IMG/VR virus record: IMGVR_UViG_3300014208_000023
Coordinates: 320,001-384,000 of that record
Length of the DNA: 64,000 bases
DNA from: a virus
Lineage: Duplodnaviria > Caudoviricetes
Reading direction: 5' to 3' (one strand)
Shown here: positions 43,850-52,070 of the stretch, piece by piece
Position numbering within the stretch: position 1 is the stretch's first letter
Layout: the number at the start of each line of letters is the position of its first letter
Translations under genes and position numbers: made by a program
Notes under the pieces: model-generated
What the model was told of the DNA's origin: nothing
The model's input: the letters and a program-made list of their open reading frames with translations, nothing else
The model's database searches: none

Positions 43850-44098
43850 GGTCGCTTCTTTGCAAGAGACCGATACCAATAGATCGTAATCAATCTACTT
43901 TTCCCGAATGGTTGCTATATAGTAACTAGCAGTATTAGGTCGCTCTTTTTGAGTTAGACCCAAACGCTTGTGATTAACCGAGGAGTTTTGCACATGAACA
44001 ATTAGGGACACGTATAAGGTATTAGTTTATACTAGCCTTCCGGCATGCCATAGTGCTGTCTAGTCACTCAAACCTAAACGTAGACACTTCGGCACTAC
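43850..44098 (-). ncRNA. candidate multi-hairpin structured RNA downstream of gltX
   Basis: No ORF; stems at 44050-44098, 43938-43960, 43879-43898 and 43850-43871, with G-U pairs mostly favouring the minus strand. Confidence 0.35.
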
Positions 44099-45546
44099 TT
44101 GTCAAGACCAGTAAGGCGGGACGCGCCTATTTCCAGCCTTTTGATTGACGAGCGGCGGCCGAGGGTCGCCATCACCTGGAATAATTCGGGTGAATGAGAC
44201 CTGCCGGTCAGTGATAGCCGCATGAATCCACCCAGCTCCTTTAGTGATAGGTCGTTTTCGACCAACCAGTTTTTGGTCAATTGCCGAAGATGATCCTCTC
44301 CCCAAGCCGGGTCTGAATCAAGAGCGGTAATTAGTGTGGATACTTTTTCGCGAACCTTCATAGAAACATCCTTGAAATCAGGATTCTCTATCGTGTCAAT
44401 TACGAACGGCATCATTTCGTCTGCCGCCTCAACTAGAGTATGTGCCCTAGCTCTCACCAAAGGCATTGCTGCTCGTAGCTTGGCCGAAGTAAAAGCGTCT
44501 TCTACCAACCCCTTTTTCTTTAGGAAAGGGAGAAGCATTTTCTCATACTCGTCAGTTGATGTAAGAGCCTCACTTTTAAGATGCTCATACTGCACTGAAG
44601 TGAATTTCTTCATGTCGAATTTGCCATCGTTCTTGCCGCAATCTTCAATTGCGAAAAGATCAATCATCTGGTCAAGAGAAAATATCTCTTGATCTTTATG
44701 AGACCATCCAAATCGAACAAGGTAATTAAGAATTGCGTGTGGAGTAAATCCCATCTCTCTAAACTCTGCGACCGACACTGAGCCATCTCGCTTTGAGAGT
44801 TTTCCACCGGCCGCGTTCAGAAGCATTGGGAGGTGACAATATATCGGACGCTCTAGTTTTAGAGCATCAGCAATCATTACCTGTTGCGGAGTATTTTTAA
44901 GATGATCTGACCCGCGGATAACGTGAGTAATATTGTCGATGACAAGATCATCAATGCAATTGGCAAAATTGAATAGCGGGATTTCGCTGTGCCGGAGGAT
45001 AACAAAATCATAGTTCTCCTTATTTGGAACGCTTCTTTTACCAAAAGCAACGTCCTCGTAATCGGTGGTTCCTTCGGTTGGAGCCTTGAATCGGATTACG
45101 AATGGCTTATCTAGGCGCTCTTTAATATCCCTACATGTACCGGGATATTTGAATGGATGCTTTGGATTCTTTGCCATGGCCTCGTCTCTGGCCTTGGTAA
45201 GCTCCTCCTCGGTGCAATAACACCTATAAGCGTCTCCCTGCTCAAGTAGCTGCTCTGCATACTTTTTGTATGTAGGAAGCCGCTCCATTTGCGTATATGC
45301 CCCTGCTGGACAATTATCAGTTCCCCATCCCATTGTAGGAGTGAGTCCAAGCCAGTTTAGCTCTGATAGAATCTTTTCAGCACCCTGATCCACTACTCTT
45401 GCGGTATCAGTATCCTCAATACGAAGGACGAAATCAGCGTCATACTTACGAGAGAATAGGTAGTTGAAAAGAAACGTCTTGGCATTTCCTACGTGAAGGG
45501 TGCCAGAGGGTGATGGGGCGCAACGCACTCGGAATTTTTTCGACAT
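44095..45546 (-). CDS. gltX: glutamyl-tRNA synthetase
   Basis: RCAPSPSGTLHVGN (HIGH), LRIEDTD, YRCYC...YPGTC zinc motif, IRGSDHL, KLSKR (KMSKS), full anticodon-binding domain. Confidence 0.95.
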   Translation of the reverse strand: MSKKFRVRCAPSPSGTLHVGNAKTFLFNYLFSRKYDADFVLRIEDTDTARVVDQGAEKILSELNWLGLTPTMGWGTDNCPAGAYTQMERLPTYKKYAEQLLEQGDAYRCYCTEEELTKARDEAMAKNPKHPFKYPGTCRDIKERLDKPFVIRFKAPTEGTTDYEDVAFGKRSVPNKENYDFVILRHSEIPLFNFANCIDDLVIDNITHVIRGSDHLKNTPQQVMIADALKLERPIYCHLPMLLNAAGGKLSKRDGSVSVAEFREMGFTPHAILNYLVRFGWSHKDQEIFSLDQMIDLFAIEDCGKNDGKFDMKKFTSVQYEHLKSEALTSTDEYEKMLLPFLKKKGLVEDAFTSAKLRAAMPLVRARAHTLVEAADEMMPFVIDTIENPDFKDVSMKVREKVSTLITALDSDPAWGEDHLRQLTKNWLVENDLSLKELGGFMRLSLTGRSHSPELFQVMATLGRRSSIKRLEIGASRLTGLDK

Positions 45547-47937: not shown

Positions 47938-49599
47938 TTATCCTATGAATTTATGAAACTTATTTTTCTTACAGAAAGCCTTCCATTCCGAAGGAGAGCA
48001 ATTTGCTTCCTCAAGAAGACTCAACCAATCTGGCTGCTTGAAAATTTCCTTATCCAAGGAGTTTGCTAGCGCCAAAAGCTCAGTCAGTTTTGCTTTCTTT
48101 TTGGCCTTTGATTTAAAGCAGGTTAAAGATGGATCCATCTTCATTTCTGTTTTAATTTCTTCGATTCTATCCTTGCGAGTCTTTTCAAGCTCGACGGCAA
48201 TTAATTCATTCACCTCTTTGGTGGTGAGGTTCGGATTTTCTTCCTTAATCTTAATGATTGCGTTTGCTTTGGCTAGCTGATATCTGGTGCTTTTATTTCT
48301 CTCACGGTAATCTGCGAGCGTTTTTTGCAGATTTCTAATTGGAGTTTGCTCCTGATATGCCATTCTTCTGCCCTGCTCAACTCCCATTAAGAATAGTAGG
48401 CGCATGACAACATCGAACAAAGAACGATCGTATTTTTCCTTCTCACGCTTAAGGAACTTTTCAGTAAAATGCTCTTTAGCTGGAGGAAAAATCTTCTTCT
48501 CCTGCTTGCCAAGCTCATATCCGTTATAATCGAATTTCCATTCGTTAGCGTTTCGGATAAGACGATAACCCTTTTCTAGAATGTTCTTGAAAGGAGCAAA
48601 GACATCATTGTATAATGCAAGCTCGTCTGGCTCATCAGACCACTGCTTTACTTTATTTTTATCTTCGACTTTCTCTTCAAGTTTCTCATCAACATGACGC
48701 TCGGCCGCATTGACAATAACAATTGGAGACGGCGCAACGCTAGACGCTTCTTGCGTAACTGGCCGCATTGGCGTATTGTTTTCTACATATTCCATAGGTT
48801 TTGCTTCATTACTCTTACTGCGAACGGAATGTTCTACCTTTGATAGCGCCGCGTCGTTAAGATAATAATATTCTTCGCCATTTGGTAGGACCACCGCCGG
48901 CCCATCTAGCCTATGGCGTTTATTATTAACGAACCATTCTTTTGTTCCGTCAAGCCAAACTCTTGCTGGACCAACAGGATTATGAATCATATCGTTGATG
49001 CGGTGAAGGTGCAGTAGCTCCTTACCCATTCTTGGGGGACTAGCCTTTAGCGCCTTGGCTCTAGCTCTCCAAAGAACTTCTGGTTCCGTAGAAGGTTTGC
49101 CCATCCAATGCCACGCCACTATGGCTTTACCATTAATTGGAGATTTTCTCTCAATAGCGGGCCCATCTTCTCGATGTAGATTGCCCATGTAATACCATTT
49201 TGTAGTGCCGTTTATTAACGTTACTGCCGGAGCGCCTTCGCGATGAAGTTTTCCCTCGAAATACCATAGGGTATCTCCGCAGGATCTAATCACTGCTGGA
49301 CCATCTGCTCTATGATTCAAGTTATTGACGTAATATTCTTTGGTGCCGCTAGCGTATTCTACGGCAGGAAGAGAATTGTCTCTATGACGTTTGCCGTGGC
49401 GCCACCATTCAGTGGAACCATCAGCATGAATGATTGCTGGTCCGGTATCAAAATGAGTTAGTTTATCGGCATCAACGTGTCTAACGGCCGGCTTAAGGCC
49501 CGGAATGTCATATACCGAATCGCTTGGCGTTGAGCTTCTTACGTCTTCGACCATTCCTAGACGATCTACGAAAGCGGATAGTGACATTCCCTTGTTCAT
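47938..49599 (-). CDS. HREDGPA-repeat protein with C-terminal coiled coil
   Basis: About 7 repeats of H-R-x-D-G-P-A-V-x(4-5)-G-x-x-x-W/Y. Confidence 0.8.
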   Translation of the reverse strand: MNKGMSLSAFVDRLGMVEDVRSSTPSDSVYDIPGLKPAVRHVDADKLTHFDTGPAIIHADGSTEWWRHGKRHRDNSLPAVEYASGTKEYYVNNLNHRADGPAVIRSCGDTLWYFEGKLHREGAPAVTLINGTTKWYYMGNLHREDGPAIERKSPINGKAIVAWHWMGKPSTEPEVLWRARAKALKASPPRMGKELLHLHRINDMIHNPVGPARVWLDGTKEWFVNNKRHRLDGPAVVLPNGEEYYYLNDAALSKVEHSVRSKSNEAKPMEYVENNTPMRPVTQEASSVAPSPIVIVNAAERHVDEKLEEKVEDKNKVKQWSDEPDELALYNDVFAPFKNILEKGYRLIRNANEWKFDYNGYELGKQEKKIFPPAKEHFTEKFLKREKEKYDRSLFDVVMRLLFLMGVEQGRRMAYQEQTPIRNLQKTLADYRERNKSTRYQLAKANAIIKIKEENPNLTTKEVNELIAVELEKTRKDRIEEIKTEMKMDPSLTCFKSKAKKKAKLTELLALANSLDKEIFKQPDWLSLLEEANCSPSEWKAFCKKNKFHKFIG

Positions 49600-49859
49600 C
49601 GGCGTCTATTTCTCTCAAGATTTTTGAGCGCATTAATTAGCAGTGATGTCTTTTTTACTTTTGCAGACAACTCTTCTGGAGTTAGCTTATCGAGAACGGC
49701 ATAGTATTTATTCTGACCGTTTTCTGTTTGAGCATACTGAAGTGTAGTAGTTACTCCGCTGAATGTCTCTTGAGAGAGAGCGGTTCCGTATTCTTTTCGG
49801 AACTTCTCGTCTATATCCAAGGCCAACTCATAGGATCTATTGAATAAACTTTCAACCAT
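49596..49859 (-). CDS. hypothetical protein
   Basis: 87-aa ORF directly downstream of the RNA array. Confidence 0.6.
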   Translation of the reverse strand: MVESLFNRSYELALDIDEKFRKEYGTALSQETFSGVTTTLQYAQTENGQNKYYAVLDKLTPEELSAKVKKTSLLINALKNLERNRRR

Positions 49860-49880: not shown

Positions 49881-49954
49881 TGGTGACCGACCCAGGGCAC
49901 GAATCTGGATTACCTTACCGAAGTAAAGCGTTCTAATCATTAAACTAGTCGGCC
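49881..49954 (-). ncRNA. non-canonical tRNA-Glu-like RNA, copy G (encoded CCA)
   Basis: GGCCGAC UA GUUU AAUGAUUA GAAC G CUUUA CUUCGG UAAGG UAAU CCAGA UUCGUGC CCUGG GUCGGUC A CCA. Confidence 0.85.
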
Positions 49955-49958
49955 GCAG

Positions 49959-50029
49959 TGACCCTCCCAGGGAACGAGCCTGGATTACCTTACCGAAATA
50001 AAGTGTTCTATTCATTAAACTAGAGGGCC
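49959..50029 (-). ncRNA. non-canonical tRNA-Glu-like RNA, copy F (no encoded CCA)
   Basis: GGCCCUC...CUUUA UUUCGG UAAGG UAAU CCAGG CUCGUUC CCUGG GAGGGUC A. Confidence 0.85.
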
Positions 50030-50084: not shown

Positions 50085-50158
50085 TGGTGACCTGTCCAGG
50101 GATCGAGTCTGGATTACCTTACCGAAGTAAAGCGTTCTGAACATTAAACTAACAGGCC
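50085..50158 (-). ncRNA. non-canonical tRNA-Glu-like RNA, copy E (encoded CCA)
   Basis: GGCCUGU...CUUUA CUUCGG UAAGG UAAU CCAGA CUCGAUC CCUGG ACAGGUC A CCA. Confidence 0.85.
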
Positions 50159-50167
50159 GTAACTGAA

Positions 50168-50407
50168 TTATGAATCTTTACCCCACGCCCAAATAGCCCT
50201 AACATACATTACCATTATGAAAATGGACATAACAACCAATGCCATAGAGTGGGTCATTAGTCCCCACGCTACCCACATTGATTCTGCAATCAATGCGATA
50301 TAGAAACCAACCTTCTTTTTATCTCCAATTAAAGAGAGTGCGATAAGTAGAAGTATGCAGCCGCCCCAAGAAAGAATGTTTGGAACGGTGAAAATTGAAT
50401 TAAACAT
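50168..50407 (-). CDS. small PnuC-like membrane protein
   Basis: Three hydrophobic helices, K-x-x-G-F/W and AIWAW ending typical of phage PnuC-like half proteins. Confidence 0.55.
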   Translation of the reverse strand: MFNSIFTVPNILSWGGCILLLIALSLIGDKKKVGFYIALIAESMWVAWGLMTHSMALVVMSIFIMVMYVRAIWAWGKDS

Positions 50408-50430
50408 ATTTGCCTTTAACTAATTGTTAG

Positions 50431-50503
50431 TTGGGGATATAGGACTCGAACCTATAACTCGCGGATTCAAAGCCCGCTACTCTGCCAGTTGAGTTAATCC
50501 CCA
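50431..50503 (-). tRNA. tRNA-Gln(UUG)
   Basis: Canonical cloverleaf UGGGGAU/AUCCCCA, D-loop GG, loop CU-UUG-AA, GUUCGA T-loop; CCA not encoded. Confidence 0.9.
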
Positions 50504-50596
50504 ATAAGAGGAAATGCATCACTTAGTGATTGAGGATTTGATCCCTTAACAATTCCAATGCTACATTTTTATAGGTTTATATAGCGAACCATTTGT

Positions 50597-50815
50597 GTGC
50601 AAATCGGTTTTGGAGGCCGATCTGCACTTTTTACTGGTTTTGCAGGCCAACCAGCCAACCTAGATCGGGCTCCACTACTTTATCGCTCTGGTCCTTTTTG
50701 GTAGAGTTTAGGTGCTTCATTGCCCTCTTTGTTTGTATTCCGAACCAGAGAAGCAGGCCTCCAAAAACGGACATCTGCCTTACGCTTTGAGTCCGCCCGT
50801 TGGAGCGTAAAAACA
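50597..50815 (-). ncRNA. candidate ~220-nt multibranch structured RNA
   Basis: Long-range helix 50756-50769/50605-50618, stems 50742-50750/50686-50694 and 50662-50668/50617-50623, and 5' hairpin UUACGCU/AGCGUAA. Confidence 0.5.
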
Positions 50816-50818
50816 TAG

Positions 50819-50889
50819 TGACCTGTCCAGGGAACGAGCCTGGATTTCCTTACCGAAATAAAGCGTTCTGATCATTAAACTAACAGGCC
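50819..50889 (-). ncRNA. non-canonical tRNA-Glu-like RNA, copy D (no encoded CCA)
   Basis: GGCCUGU...CUUUA UUUCGG UAAGG AAAU CCAGG CUCGUUC CCUGG ACAGGUC A. Confidence 0.85.
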
Positions 50890-50896
50890 TAAATTG

Positions 50897-51082
50897 TTAT
50901 CCGATAACCACGTACTCTTTGCCATTAGCAATTTCTTCACAAGTCCCGCCCTTGGTGTAAGGGTTTCCCATTGGTGTCACTCCGGTGCATATGGATGCGT
51001 CTTCGGAATCTGCCGAATACGTGATGACTAGTGCGTCTTGGTTACACTTCAAGAGCTTTGCAACAATTTCTGATACTTTCAT
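50897..51082 (-). CDS. small hypothetical protein
   Basis: MKVSEIVAKLL...; lies between RNA copies C and D. Confidence 0.6.
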   Translation of the reverse strand: MKVSEIVAKLLKCNQDALVITYSADSEDASICTGVTPMGNPYTKGGTCEEIANGKEYVVIG

Positions 51083-51115
51083 TTTTTTTCTTTTCTTTCA
51101 TTTTAGTAGCGTTAG

Positions 51116-51186
51116 TGATCCTCCCAGGGAATGAGCCTGGATTACCTTACCGAAATAAAGTGTTCTATTCATTAAACTAGAGGACC
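51116..51186 (-). ncRNA. non-canonical tRNA-Glu-like RNA, copy C (no encoded CCA)
   Basis: GGUCCUC...CUUUA UUUCGG UAAGG UAAU CCAGG CUCAUUC CCUGG GAGGAUC A. Confidence 0.85.
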
Positions 51187-51491
51187 TAAAGATTTATTTC
51201 CTCAATGATGGTGAGGTTGTTATTTTCTTTTTTATAGAGAAGAAGGCTGTTAGCATTGATTTTTTCATTAAGAAAAAGAAGCTTAATTTTCTCACATGTA
51301 AGCTTGAATTTCAAAATTAAGAAATATTCATTTGCAAGAATGTTAATGTTATTTTCTTGCAACAGTCTTTCTAAGTCAAGATTATTGTTTTGGCGAGTGT
51401 CAGTTGTTAGGGAAGATTTGTAACGACTTATAAAGTCGCGCGCGGCTTCTAACGTGTATTCTCCAGTGAAAAATGGTCTATATAAAATCAT
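51186..51491 (-). CDS. AT-rich hypothetical protein
   Basis: 101-aa ORF exactly filling the gap between RNA copies B and C. Confidence 0.55.
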   Translation of the reverse strand: MILYRPFFTGEYTLEAARDFISRYKSSLTTDTRQNNNLDLERLLQENNINILANEYFLILKFKLTCEKIKLLFLNEKINANSLLLYKKENNNLTIIEEINL

Positions 51492-51499
51492 GTTTTTAG

Positions 51500-51569
51500 T
51501 GACCCGTCCAGGGATCGAATCTGGATTACCTTACCGAAGTAAAGTGTTCTGGCATTAAACTAACGGGCC
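51500..51569 (-). ncRNA. non-canonical tRNA-Glu-like RNA, copy B (no encoded CCA)
   Basis: GGCCCGU UA GUUU AAUGCCA GAAC A CUUUA CUUCGG UAAGG UAAU CCAGA UUCGAUC CCUGG ACGGGUC A. Confidence 0.85.
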
Positions 51570-51573
51570 GTAA

Positions 51574-51894
51574 TTATATCTTAAATTCTTTTACTATTTC
51601 AACTTCTAGGCCACCAAAAGGAATGCGTTTGGTACGGACGATATATATCGTATCTCCCGTAATCGATTGTGCGCGGGCCAGTCTATCTAAAGCGTCACAC
51701 TTTGCCGTAGCTCTAACTATGAAGCCATAGCCAAGTGCTCCTATAGATTTAGTTGAATTAATGATTTCAGTCATAGAGGTCGCGTTGGATAACGCTGGCG
51801 CTATATTAAAATAGCCCCTATTCTTCCTTATCCAAGATTCGGCGGCTTCTAGCGTTTTTAGTGACGATAAACTATAACTGGCATATATAAACAT
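51574..51894 (-). CDS. hypothetical protein
   Basis: 106-aa ORF whose ATG directly follows the CCA of RNA copy A. Confidence 0.6.
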   Translation of the reverse strand: MFIYASYSLSSLKTLEAAESWIRKNRGYFNIAPALSNATSMTEIINSTKSIGALGYGFIVRATAKCDALDRLARAQSITGDTIYIVRTKRIPFGGLEVEIVKEFKI

Positions 51895-51967
51895 TGGTGA
51901 CCTGTCTAGGGATCGAATCTAGATTTCCCTACCGAAGTAGAGCGTTTTGGCATTAAACTAACAGGCC
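51895..51967 (-). ncRNA. non-canonical tRNA-Glu-like RNA, copy A (encoded CCA)
   Basis: GGCCUGU UA GUUU AAUGCCA AAAC G CUCUA CUUCGG UAGGG AAAU CUAGA UUCGAUC CCUAG ACAGGUC A CCA; compensatory changes in the AC and T stems. Confidence 0.85.
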
Positions 51968-51972
51968 AATAG

Positions 51973-52070
51973 CGGCGAGGATGAGGAATCGAACCTTATC
52001 TACAATGTAGAGCGAACTGCTTTTTGCTTCATATCTTCATTGATCCTGGCTCCATACGAAGCTTCTCGCC
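51973..52070 (-). ncRNA. 98-nt tRNA-like element with no recognisable anticodon arm
   Basis: GGCGAG/CUCGCC acceptor, GCUUC-GUAU-GGAGC hairpin, GGUUCGAUUCC T-arm, discriminator G. Confidence 0.5.

Follow-up and report, generated by a model that had tools for sequence, protein, structure and literature searches.

In this study, we analysed a 64,000-nucleotide stretch of phage DNA (Duplodnaviria; Caudoviricetes), here called the window, which comprises bases 320001-384000 of IMGVR_UViG_3300014208_000023, a complete virus record of 428,320 bp with direct terminal repeats. The window holds a cluster of co-oriented RNA genes and small protein genes, and the cluster is punctuated by copies of one tRNA-shaped RNA, here called the mimic. 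Judged from its pairing and conservation, the mimic is a non-decoding RNA in which a UNCG tetraloop replaces the anticodon loop. Comparison with related phages leads us to believe, with good confidence, that the mimic copies are the borders of exchangeable one-gene modules, and that gene+RNA units have been duplicated, deleted and relocated by homology-driven exchange. The core of the cluster is a mimic, a gene of a family of ~100-aa proteins and another mimic. In the explanation proposed here, mimic genes of ~74 bp would serve as movable blocks of homology. Gene+RNA units would be duplicated, removed or relocated through unequal exchange between the copies, deletion and gene conversion, and a site-specific recombinase would be unnecessary. 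The entire cluster would probably be transcribed as one precursor, from which the tRNA shapes may be cut. Taken as a whole, we consider this explanation evenly poised between being right and being wrong, and its parts are graded separately below.

The minus strand carries nearly all genes of the window, and seven mimic genes of ~73 nt each were found on it: A (51895-51967), B (51497-51569), C (51113-51186), D (50816-50889), E (50085-50158), F (49956-50029) and G (49881-49954). An eighth copy, H, lies outside the window at genome positions 386817-386890, 16.7 kb off and beside the tRNA-Gly gene. An earlier note on this DNA, made from the letters alone, had implied five repeats (A to E), to which F, G and the distant H have to be added. 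The same note had described open reading frames (ORFs) fitted between the RNAs, and the spacings that it gave were right. Read on the minus strand, the ATG of ORF106 (51574-51894) abuts the CCA of copy A (spacing 0 nt), and its stop is 4 nt ahead of G1 of copy B. ORF101 (51186-51491, minus strand) starts 8 nt past copy B's discriminator, and its TAG stop overlaps copy C by one base, the G serving also as G1. ORF61 (50897-51082, minus strand) ends 7 nt ahead of D, and ORF79 (50168-50407, minus strand) ends 9 nt ahead of E. With the related phages included, the gaps from stop to G1 were -1 to 9 nt at 10 junctions, and the gaps from discriminator to ATG were 2-8 nt in six of seven genes of the ~100-aa family.

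The structure of the mimic was evaluated on 25 copies, eight from this genome and 17 aligned from relatives. The cloverleaf pairing was kept in 97-98% of the cells (97% among the own copies), and sliding the register of the own-copy alignment made the pairing collapse. Six pairs were kept through double changes in the own copies and 13 when the relatives were added, which none of 500 shuffles matched. Pairing was complete (100%) in the acceptor, D and anticodon stems and reached 89-90% in the T stem; the acceptor/T stack of 7+5 bp was intact. The minimum-energy fold of the mimic, for example of copy A, was the cloverleaf. Our covariance model (R1) gave 92.6, 96.9, 98.2, 101.3, 99.6, 99.2 and 97.8 bits to copies A to G, respectively, and the Rfam tRNA model RF00005 (gathering score 29) recovered four of the seven at 36.7-41.6 bits, with 41.6 bits for A and 41.3 bits for D.

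What is missing from the cloverleaf is the decoding part. The anticodon arm is a 6-bp stem with a UUCG or CUCG cap closed by Y-G; a 7-nt anticodon loop with a 3-nt anticodon was found in none of the 25 copies, all of which have a 6-nt Y-UNCG-G segment instead, and ARAGORN gives the mimic a 2-nt "anticodon". Because the loops vary between UUCG and CUCG (the latter in 7 of the 17 copies from relatives), the conserved feature is the UNCG tetraloop and not a UUC triplet. The G18G19 of the D loop was also absent in all copies, where the loop consists of AAUG, 2-4 nt and A, with a single G. The conserved G.U pairs 2:71, 13:22 and 28:41 make sense only in an RNA of the gene strand. Two other origins of the repeats were discarded. 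Positional orthologues of the mimic are 86-97% identical between genomes in which synonymous sites are saturated (proportion of synonymous differences, pS, 0.7-0.8), and this identity together with the compensatory changes rules out decaying pseudogenes. A randomly dispersed element of the miniature inverted-repeat transposable element type is ruled out by the location of the eight copies at two tRNA-gene loci, all oriented with transcription.

The acceptor end of the mimic was G1-C72, G2.U71 and A73 in all copies, which is that of the phage's own tRNA-Glu (genome 28189-28264, minus strand, CCA encoded, A73), the only phage tRNA with G2.U71. Copy C shares GGUCC...GGAUCA with this tRNA-Glu. The similarity of the mimic to tRNA-Glu over the whole sequence was not above that to other tRNAs. 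CCA is encoded in three of the eight own copies (A, E and G), and the remaining five read CUA, as in B, C and D, or CUG, as in F. An ORF of 565 aa with a PolyA_pol (CCA-adding/poly(A) polymerase) domain is present elsewhere in the genome (234675-235067, minus strand), outside the window, and bears on the five copies in which CCA is not encoded.

The earlier note had held that the ORFs between the RNAs were unrelated to one another, and this does not apply to ORF106 and ORF101. BLAST found no similarity between the two, and hhalign aligned them with a P of 1.4e-4. A profile made from four outside proteins only retrieved, among the 2348 ORFs of the genome, just ORF101 (E 2.7e-14) and ORF106 (E 2.5e-8), and the next ORF followed at E 0.04. 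These profile results indicate that ORF106 and ORF101 are paralogues in one uncatalogued family. A profile search of 1.84 billion representative proteins returned only nine clusters of this family, all of 96-110 aa and all matched over the full length. The family proteins had no match in Pfam or PHROG, and the search against the sequences of the Protein Data Bank (PDB) gave spurious designed-repeat matches only. ORF106 belongs to clade I of the family, with homologues P0002 (61% identity) and L012_105 (35% identity), and ORF101 belongs to clade II, with the homologue P0004 (75%). A 7-kb JGI contig carries one homologue of each, in the same order. ORF61 is an unrelated gene, as the earlier note had it.

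Relatives of the phage were reached via homologues of ORF153, the gene just upstream of the array, which led to syntenic contigs from several samples, including L009 (a 430,963-bp NCBI contig) and L012 (a 421,901-bp JGI contig). In the same region, the covariance model found four copies of the mimic in L009 and five in L012, and further copies in L019, L020, L023, L024 and L026. Copy G is the positional orthologue of the relatives' last copy, and its nearest copies are L024_3 and L009_4. Other routes to relatives were poor: blastn of the region against the phages collection gave nothing, related-locus searches from ORF553, ORF153 and GluRS gave nothing, and three RNA pattern scans, two of viral_contigs and a first one of metagenome_contigs, found no relatives. 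The second metagenome_contigs scan found L026 only, with a genuine copy in a distant relative; L025 was an unrelated weak match. Two contigs end inside a mimic copy, L018 (10513-10542) and L023 (1-67). The repeats evidently interrupt short-read assemblies, and such arrays may therefore be sampled too rarely.

The linkage between the ~100-aa family and the mimic recurred in these relatives. Seven of the eight family members whose DNA was readable were flanked by mimics on both sides, namely ORF106 and ORF101 of this phage, L012_110 and L012_105 of L012, P0016 of L024, P0017 of L020 and P0020 of L023. In L024, the order around P0016 is ORF80, RNA, gene, RNA, RNA. In L020, the ATG of P0017 is 2 nt past the discriminator, and the last base of its TAG doubles as G1 of the copy that follows. 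The mimic also flanks unrelated genes, namely ORF61, ORF79, ORF87 and a 123-aa ORF of the distant L026, where the homologue of ORF153 is followed by a mimic and then by this ORF.

Evidence for exchange came from the borders of homology between this phage and L012. The homology runs through copy A up to its 3' end and is found again exactly from G1 of D onward; a second gap opens at the 3' end of E and closes 6 nt before F, so that all four breakpoints are within 6 nt of RNA ends. The content between the borders differs. The interval from A to D holds ORF106-B-ORF101-C-ORF61 in this phage, ORF61 only in L009, which is without ORF106-B-ORF101-C, and the unique ORF110 in L012. The equivalent of the E-to-F interval holds a family gene in L012 (ORF105) and L024, whereas this phage has a 55-nt spacer there. 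Clade I of the family tree, with 98/98 support, groups slot-1 genes from this phage and from the 7-kb contig with slot-2 genes from L012 and L024. The tRNA-Gly locus differs as well: before the same membrane-protein gene, this phage has copy H alone, and L020 has RNA, gene and RNA. The RNAs themselves carry traces of exchange: the copies L024_3 and L012_5 are mosaics, with the acceptor of one type and the anticodon arm of another, and within this genome C and F are 95% identical and E and H are 99% identical, which points to homogenisation.

These comparisons support the suggestion of the earlier note that the repeats are recombination points bounding shuffled cargo, since cargo content differs among relatives, with breaks no more than 6 nt from the repeat ends and one subfamily in different slots. 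Its further idea, that cargo genes are captured, holds only in part. At its core, the cargo consists of a single paralogous family, which suggests that gene+RNA units were duplicated. We also considered that the repeats might be attC-like DNA sites at which a site-specific recombinase inserts and excises cassettes, as in integrons. The promoter-less single ORFs between structured repeats of ~74 bp and the variable cargo fit such a system. However, neither PF00589 (Phage_integrase) nor PF00239 (Resolvase) matched in the complete genome, whereas control genomes matched, and without a tyrosine or serine recombinase, homologous recombination between the RNA copies is the likely driver. Moreover, the G.U pairs and the tRNA-type tertiary positions indicate selection on the gene-strand RNA, and the copies are confined to tRNA-gene regions and always oriented with transcription. 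We regard an integron-like system as very improbable.

The other ORFs of the array also behave as genes. The proportion of nonsynonymous differences (pN) was 0.25 against a pS of 0.74 in ORF61, 0.17 in ORF79 (pS about 0.7) and 0.33 against 0.70 in ORF87, and this pattern indicates that the array ORFs are real genes. ORF61 is a small gene with a 62% homologue in L009. ORF79 is a small membrane protein gene (PHROG 14697 and 2421) with homologues of 57-72% in relatives, and ORF87 (49596-49859, minus strand) is a conserved gene that ends the array, with homologues of 44-47% in L009 and L012. The remark of the earlier note that the ORFs lack obvious ribosome-binding sites applies only to ORF106 and ORF101. 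Purine-rich leaders, counted from the discriminator, precede ORF61 (33 nt) and ORF87 (24 nt), and ORF79 has AAGG about 10 nt upstream of its ATG. In this genome, a Shine-Dalgarno-type 4-mer is present upstream of ~35% of the long ORFs, against 12% in the background, so its absence is common. Promoter-like and terminator-like sites in the array were not above the shuffled expectation. One near-consensus sigma-70-like promoter (TTGAAA, 18-nt spacer, TATAAT; 11/12) was seen at 51573-51602 on the minus strand, within the final part of ORF106; its -10 box stops 4 nt short of G1 of copy B.

How might such a cluster be expressed? The intact acceptor/T helix makes cleavage at G1 of each tRNA shape by RNase P likely, and we are inclined to accept this step. 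The tRNA 3'-end machinery would probably cut after the discriminator or after CCA, with the CCA-less copies as substrates of the RNase Z type. Both cuts together would free small RNAs and separate messages, and the mRNAs of the family genes would keep leaders of 0-8 nt. Punctuation by RNase P/Z with near-leaderless mRNAs, which the earlier note had offered as one possibility, is plausible and compatible with the anatomy, namely the 7+5-bp helix and the spacing of the starts. That the cut messages of the family genes would be translated as leaderless mRNAs is a more doubtful step, and we tend to disbelieve it.

Several observations weigh against the explanation proposed here. Gaps of 10 nt or less make up ~40% of the same-strand gene gaps in this genome, and real tRNAs are equally close to their neighbours (1 and 6 nt for tRNA-Tyr, 1 nt for tRNA-Ile). 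Because tight spacing is normal here, the abutment alone is not proof of a role in processing. An ATG also follows copy D and copy 1 of L009, with no conserved ORF after it, and the ATG may just be part of the repeat unit. The 3' acceptor strands of L012_3 and L020_1 contain GGAGG 7-10 nt upstream of the ATG; at that distance, ordinary Shine-Dalgarno initiation on uncut or ribosome-opened RNA is possible. In bacteria, CCA-encoding tRNAs usually mature at the 3' end by a downstream cut followed by exonuclease trimming, and at the CCA-encoding copies this would destroy the next start codon. As for movement, the slot differences in clade I could reflect old paralogues that were differentially lost. 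Finally, one family member, P0018 of L021/L022, has no mimic nearby.

The tight packing raises the alternative that this is an ordinary compact tRNA region of a phage. In that case the mimics would serve a separate purpose, perhaps as GluRS acceptors or decoys, the small genes would be neighbours or hitch-hikers, the exact fit would reflect nothing but gene packing, and the variability would be the plasticity usual in such regions. Real tRNAs are abutted as tightly in this genome, the acceptor end of the mimic is that of the phage tRNA-Glu including G2.U71, the GluRS gene (window 44095-45546) is ~4 kb downstream, and the cluster also contains tRNA-Gln, another structured RNA (element X), a candidate ~310-nt non-coding RNA and, in L009, tRNA-Met. 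Packing leaves unexplained that, at three kinds of locus, the mimic brackets one rare family in seven of the eight contexts that were readable, and that all four breakpoints between this phage and L012 are no more than 6 nt from RNA ends. Two features go beyond chance, the recurrent linkage of one rare family with the mimic and the coincidence of breakpoints with RNA ends. We believe that an ordinary tRNA region is an unlikely explanation, and of the rivals it is the one to be taken most seriously.

The closeness of stops to G1 also suggests a role in cis, within the mRNA. The mimic could be a stabilising tRNA-like cap at the 3' end, or a fold that hides the start site and is opened by the terminating ribosome, which would couple the translation of neighbouring genes. 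With stops -1 to 9 nt from G1 at the 10 junctions, a terminating ribosome would melt the acceptor stem, and several ATGs have a Shine-Dalgarno-like GGAGG or AGGU 6-10 nt upstream, within the 3' acceptor strand. Coupling cannot serve ORF106, which follows element X and copy A with no upstream ORF within 110 nt, and tandem copies without genes (F-G; L012_4-5) would have no such role. In addition, an intact tRNA-like helix is the expected substrate of RNase P, which would cut it. We consider a role in cis improbable.

The strict linkage of gene and RNA across lineages and loci could instead mean that the mimic and the ~100-aa protein are a functional pair, for example a tRNA-directed effector with its decoy or antidote, in the logic of type III toxin-antitoxin systems. 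The protein might then bind or modify the mimic or be neutralised by it, and the module would be a functional unit as well as a unit of exchange. The family is tiny and confined to this phage group. The AlphaFold2 model of ORF106 is confident (predicted local distance difference test, pLDDT, 91), and VIA-align of this model gave weak best matches that nearly all have the ADP-ribosyltransferase fold (Z 4.2-5.2; root-mean-square deviation 3.0-3.8 A over 76-90 residues), among them EcPltA, IcmQ, TreX, Scabin, pertussis S1 and LT-A. A motif x-x-Y-R was found at the N-terminus of 6 of 11 family members. However, Z values of about 5 are within the range of chance arrangements, Foldseek of the family model against the PDB gave no match at E <= 0.001, no sequence family matched, and the Arg of the motif is not retained in clade I. 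The member without RNA nearby (P0018) and the unrelated genes beside the mimic also speak against a strict pair. An ADP-ribosyltransferase-like fold is thus a lead only, and we rate the functional pair as quite unlikely. The same low expectation applies to the broader idea that the mimic and a possibly ADP-ribosyltransferase-like protein make up a new two-part system in a mobile cassette, perhaps with a tRNA-directed effector that the non-decoding tRNA body restrains or guides, and in which the RNA genes would provide processing signals, the context of starts and stops, and the homology for moving between slots and genomes. Beside some family genes, a gene of PF08883 (DOPA-dioxygenase family) was observed ~0.35-0.45 kb downstream, in L020 (1305-1697), a relative with mimics, and in L021 (1020-1376), a more distant phage without them.

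Besides the mimics, the cluster contains other RNA elements. Element X (51970-52068, minus strand) is a conserved, structured, tRNA-like RNA of ~100 nt immediately upstream of copy A. Five lineages share it, and 14 of its pairs persist despite changes on both sides; its parts are an acceptor-like stem, a hairpin resembling a T arm and a long central hairpin with covariation. In most lineages it sits 1-4 nt ahead of the first mimic; it is missing from the distant L026. Element X had no match in Rfam, and ARAGORN labelled its counterpart in L009 as a 94-nt "tRNA-Phe(GAA)". A canonical tRNA-Gln (UUG) was identified at 50430-50503 on the minus strand by ARAGORN (Rfam 63.2 bits). Ordinary tRNAs number 14 across the genome. 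In the L009/L010 lineage, an extra tRNA-Met directly follows tRNA-Gln (L009 11607-11682, plus strand) and is missing there in this genome; a called ORF of 132 aa in L009 overlaps both tRNAs and is probably spurious. Between copy D and tRNA-Gln, a stretch of ~310 nt (50504-50815, minus strand) has ~75% nucleotide identity to L009 and L012, and indels and stops disrupt every reading frame. It is a candidate structured non-coding RNA, which tRNA-type processing on both sides would free. A 61-aa ORF at 50631-50816, starting from the ATG right after D, was rejected as a gene on account of a 1-nt indel and stops in L009 and L012. Downstream of the array, ORF553 (47938-49599, minus strand) contains repeated units of ~23 aa of the type G-x-K/T-E-W/Y-...-H-R-x-D/N-G-P-A, and tblastn found these units in at least four further genes (genome ~3.3-4.3, 183.4, 335.7 and 383.5 kb).

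Several known systems resemble parts of this cluster. The punctuation of mitochondrial transcripts by tRNAs was reportedly described by Ojala et al. in 1981, and the t-elements of plant mitochondria are non-decoding tRNA shapes that serve as processing signals. Both have been reviewed (PMC4394434; PMC8601606). As in those systems, tRNA shapes abut coding regions here with no room for leaders, and excision by RNase P and RNase Z would set the ends of mRNAs. The differences are that the present case is a phage of bacteria, in which one dedicated, multi-copy, non-decoding RNA with a UNCG cap is tied to one protein family, and that processing here is a prediction. The tRNA cluster of phage T4 contains eight tRNAs, two small stable RNAs and small ORFs, is processed by host RNase P, and receives CCA where it is not encoded. 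It resembles the present cluster as a plastic region of a large lytic phage in which probably co-transcribed tRNAs, odd RNAs and small ORFs are combined and some RNA genes do not encode CCA. In contrast, the T4 RNAs are single-copy, and no repeated non-decoding tRNA paralogue is known there to bracket members of a gene family.

With integron attC cassettes, the cluster shares one promoter-less ORF per unit, structured repeats between the units and differences in cargo from relative to relative. Unlike in integrons, there is no integrase, the repeat is selected as RNA, and much of the cargo is paralogous and not captured. The mascRNA of MALAT1 is a substrate of RNase P, and the 3' tRNA-like structures of plant viruses are substrates of the CCA-adding enzyme and of synthetases. 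The mimic resembles both as a non-decoding tRNA shape on a longer RNA; those examples, however, are single, 3'-terminal, built with a pseudoknot and eukaryotic, whereas multiple internal true cloverleaves are found here in a DNA phage. In the type III system ToxIN, the ToxI repeats are pseudoknots of 36 nt, and it is the toxin that cuts them. Tandem structured RNA repeats beside a small protein gene on mobile DNA are common to ToxIN, whose repeats are processed to unit length, and to the present cluster, whereas the protein is unrelated in sequence and nothing here points to toxicity. No description of such an array was found in the literature. The cluster differs from punctuation, the T4 region and integrons in its dedicated multi-copy non-decoding tRNA shape, the tie of this shape to one protein family and the lack of a recombinase.

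Two uncatalogued families, the UNCG-capped tRNA-shaped RNA and the ~100-aa protein, thus travel together in megaphages of 420-430 kb, and they offer an entry point to the ways in which huge phages use tRNA-like molecules beyond decoding. In practical terms, because the repeats break assemblies, phage bins probably contain this region less often than they should. Should transcript cutting and the homology for exchange both come from these RNAs, the cluster would be the equivalent, in a bacterial virus, of tRNA punctuation in mitochondria and, at the same time, a recombinase-free route to a gene-cassette array.

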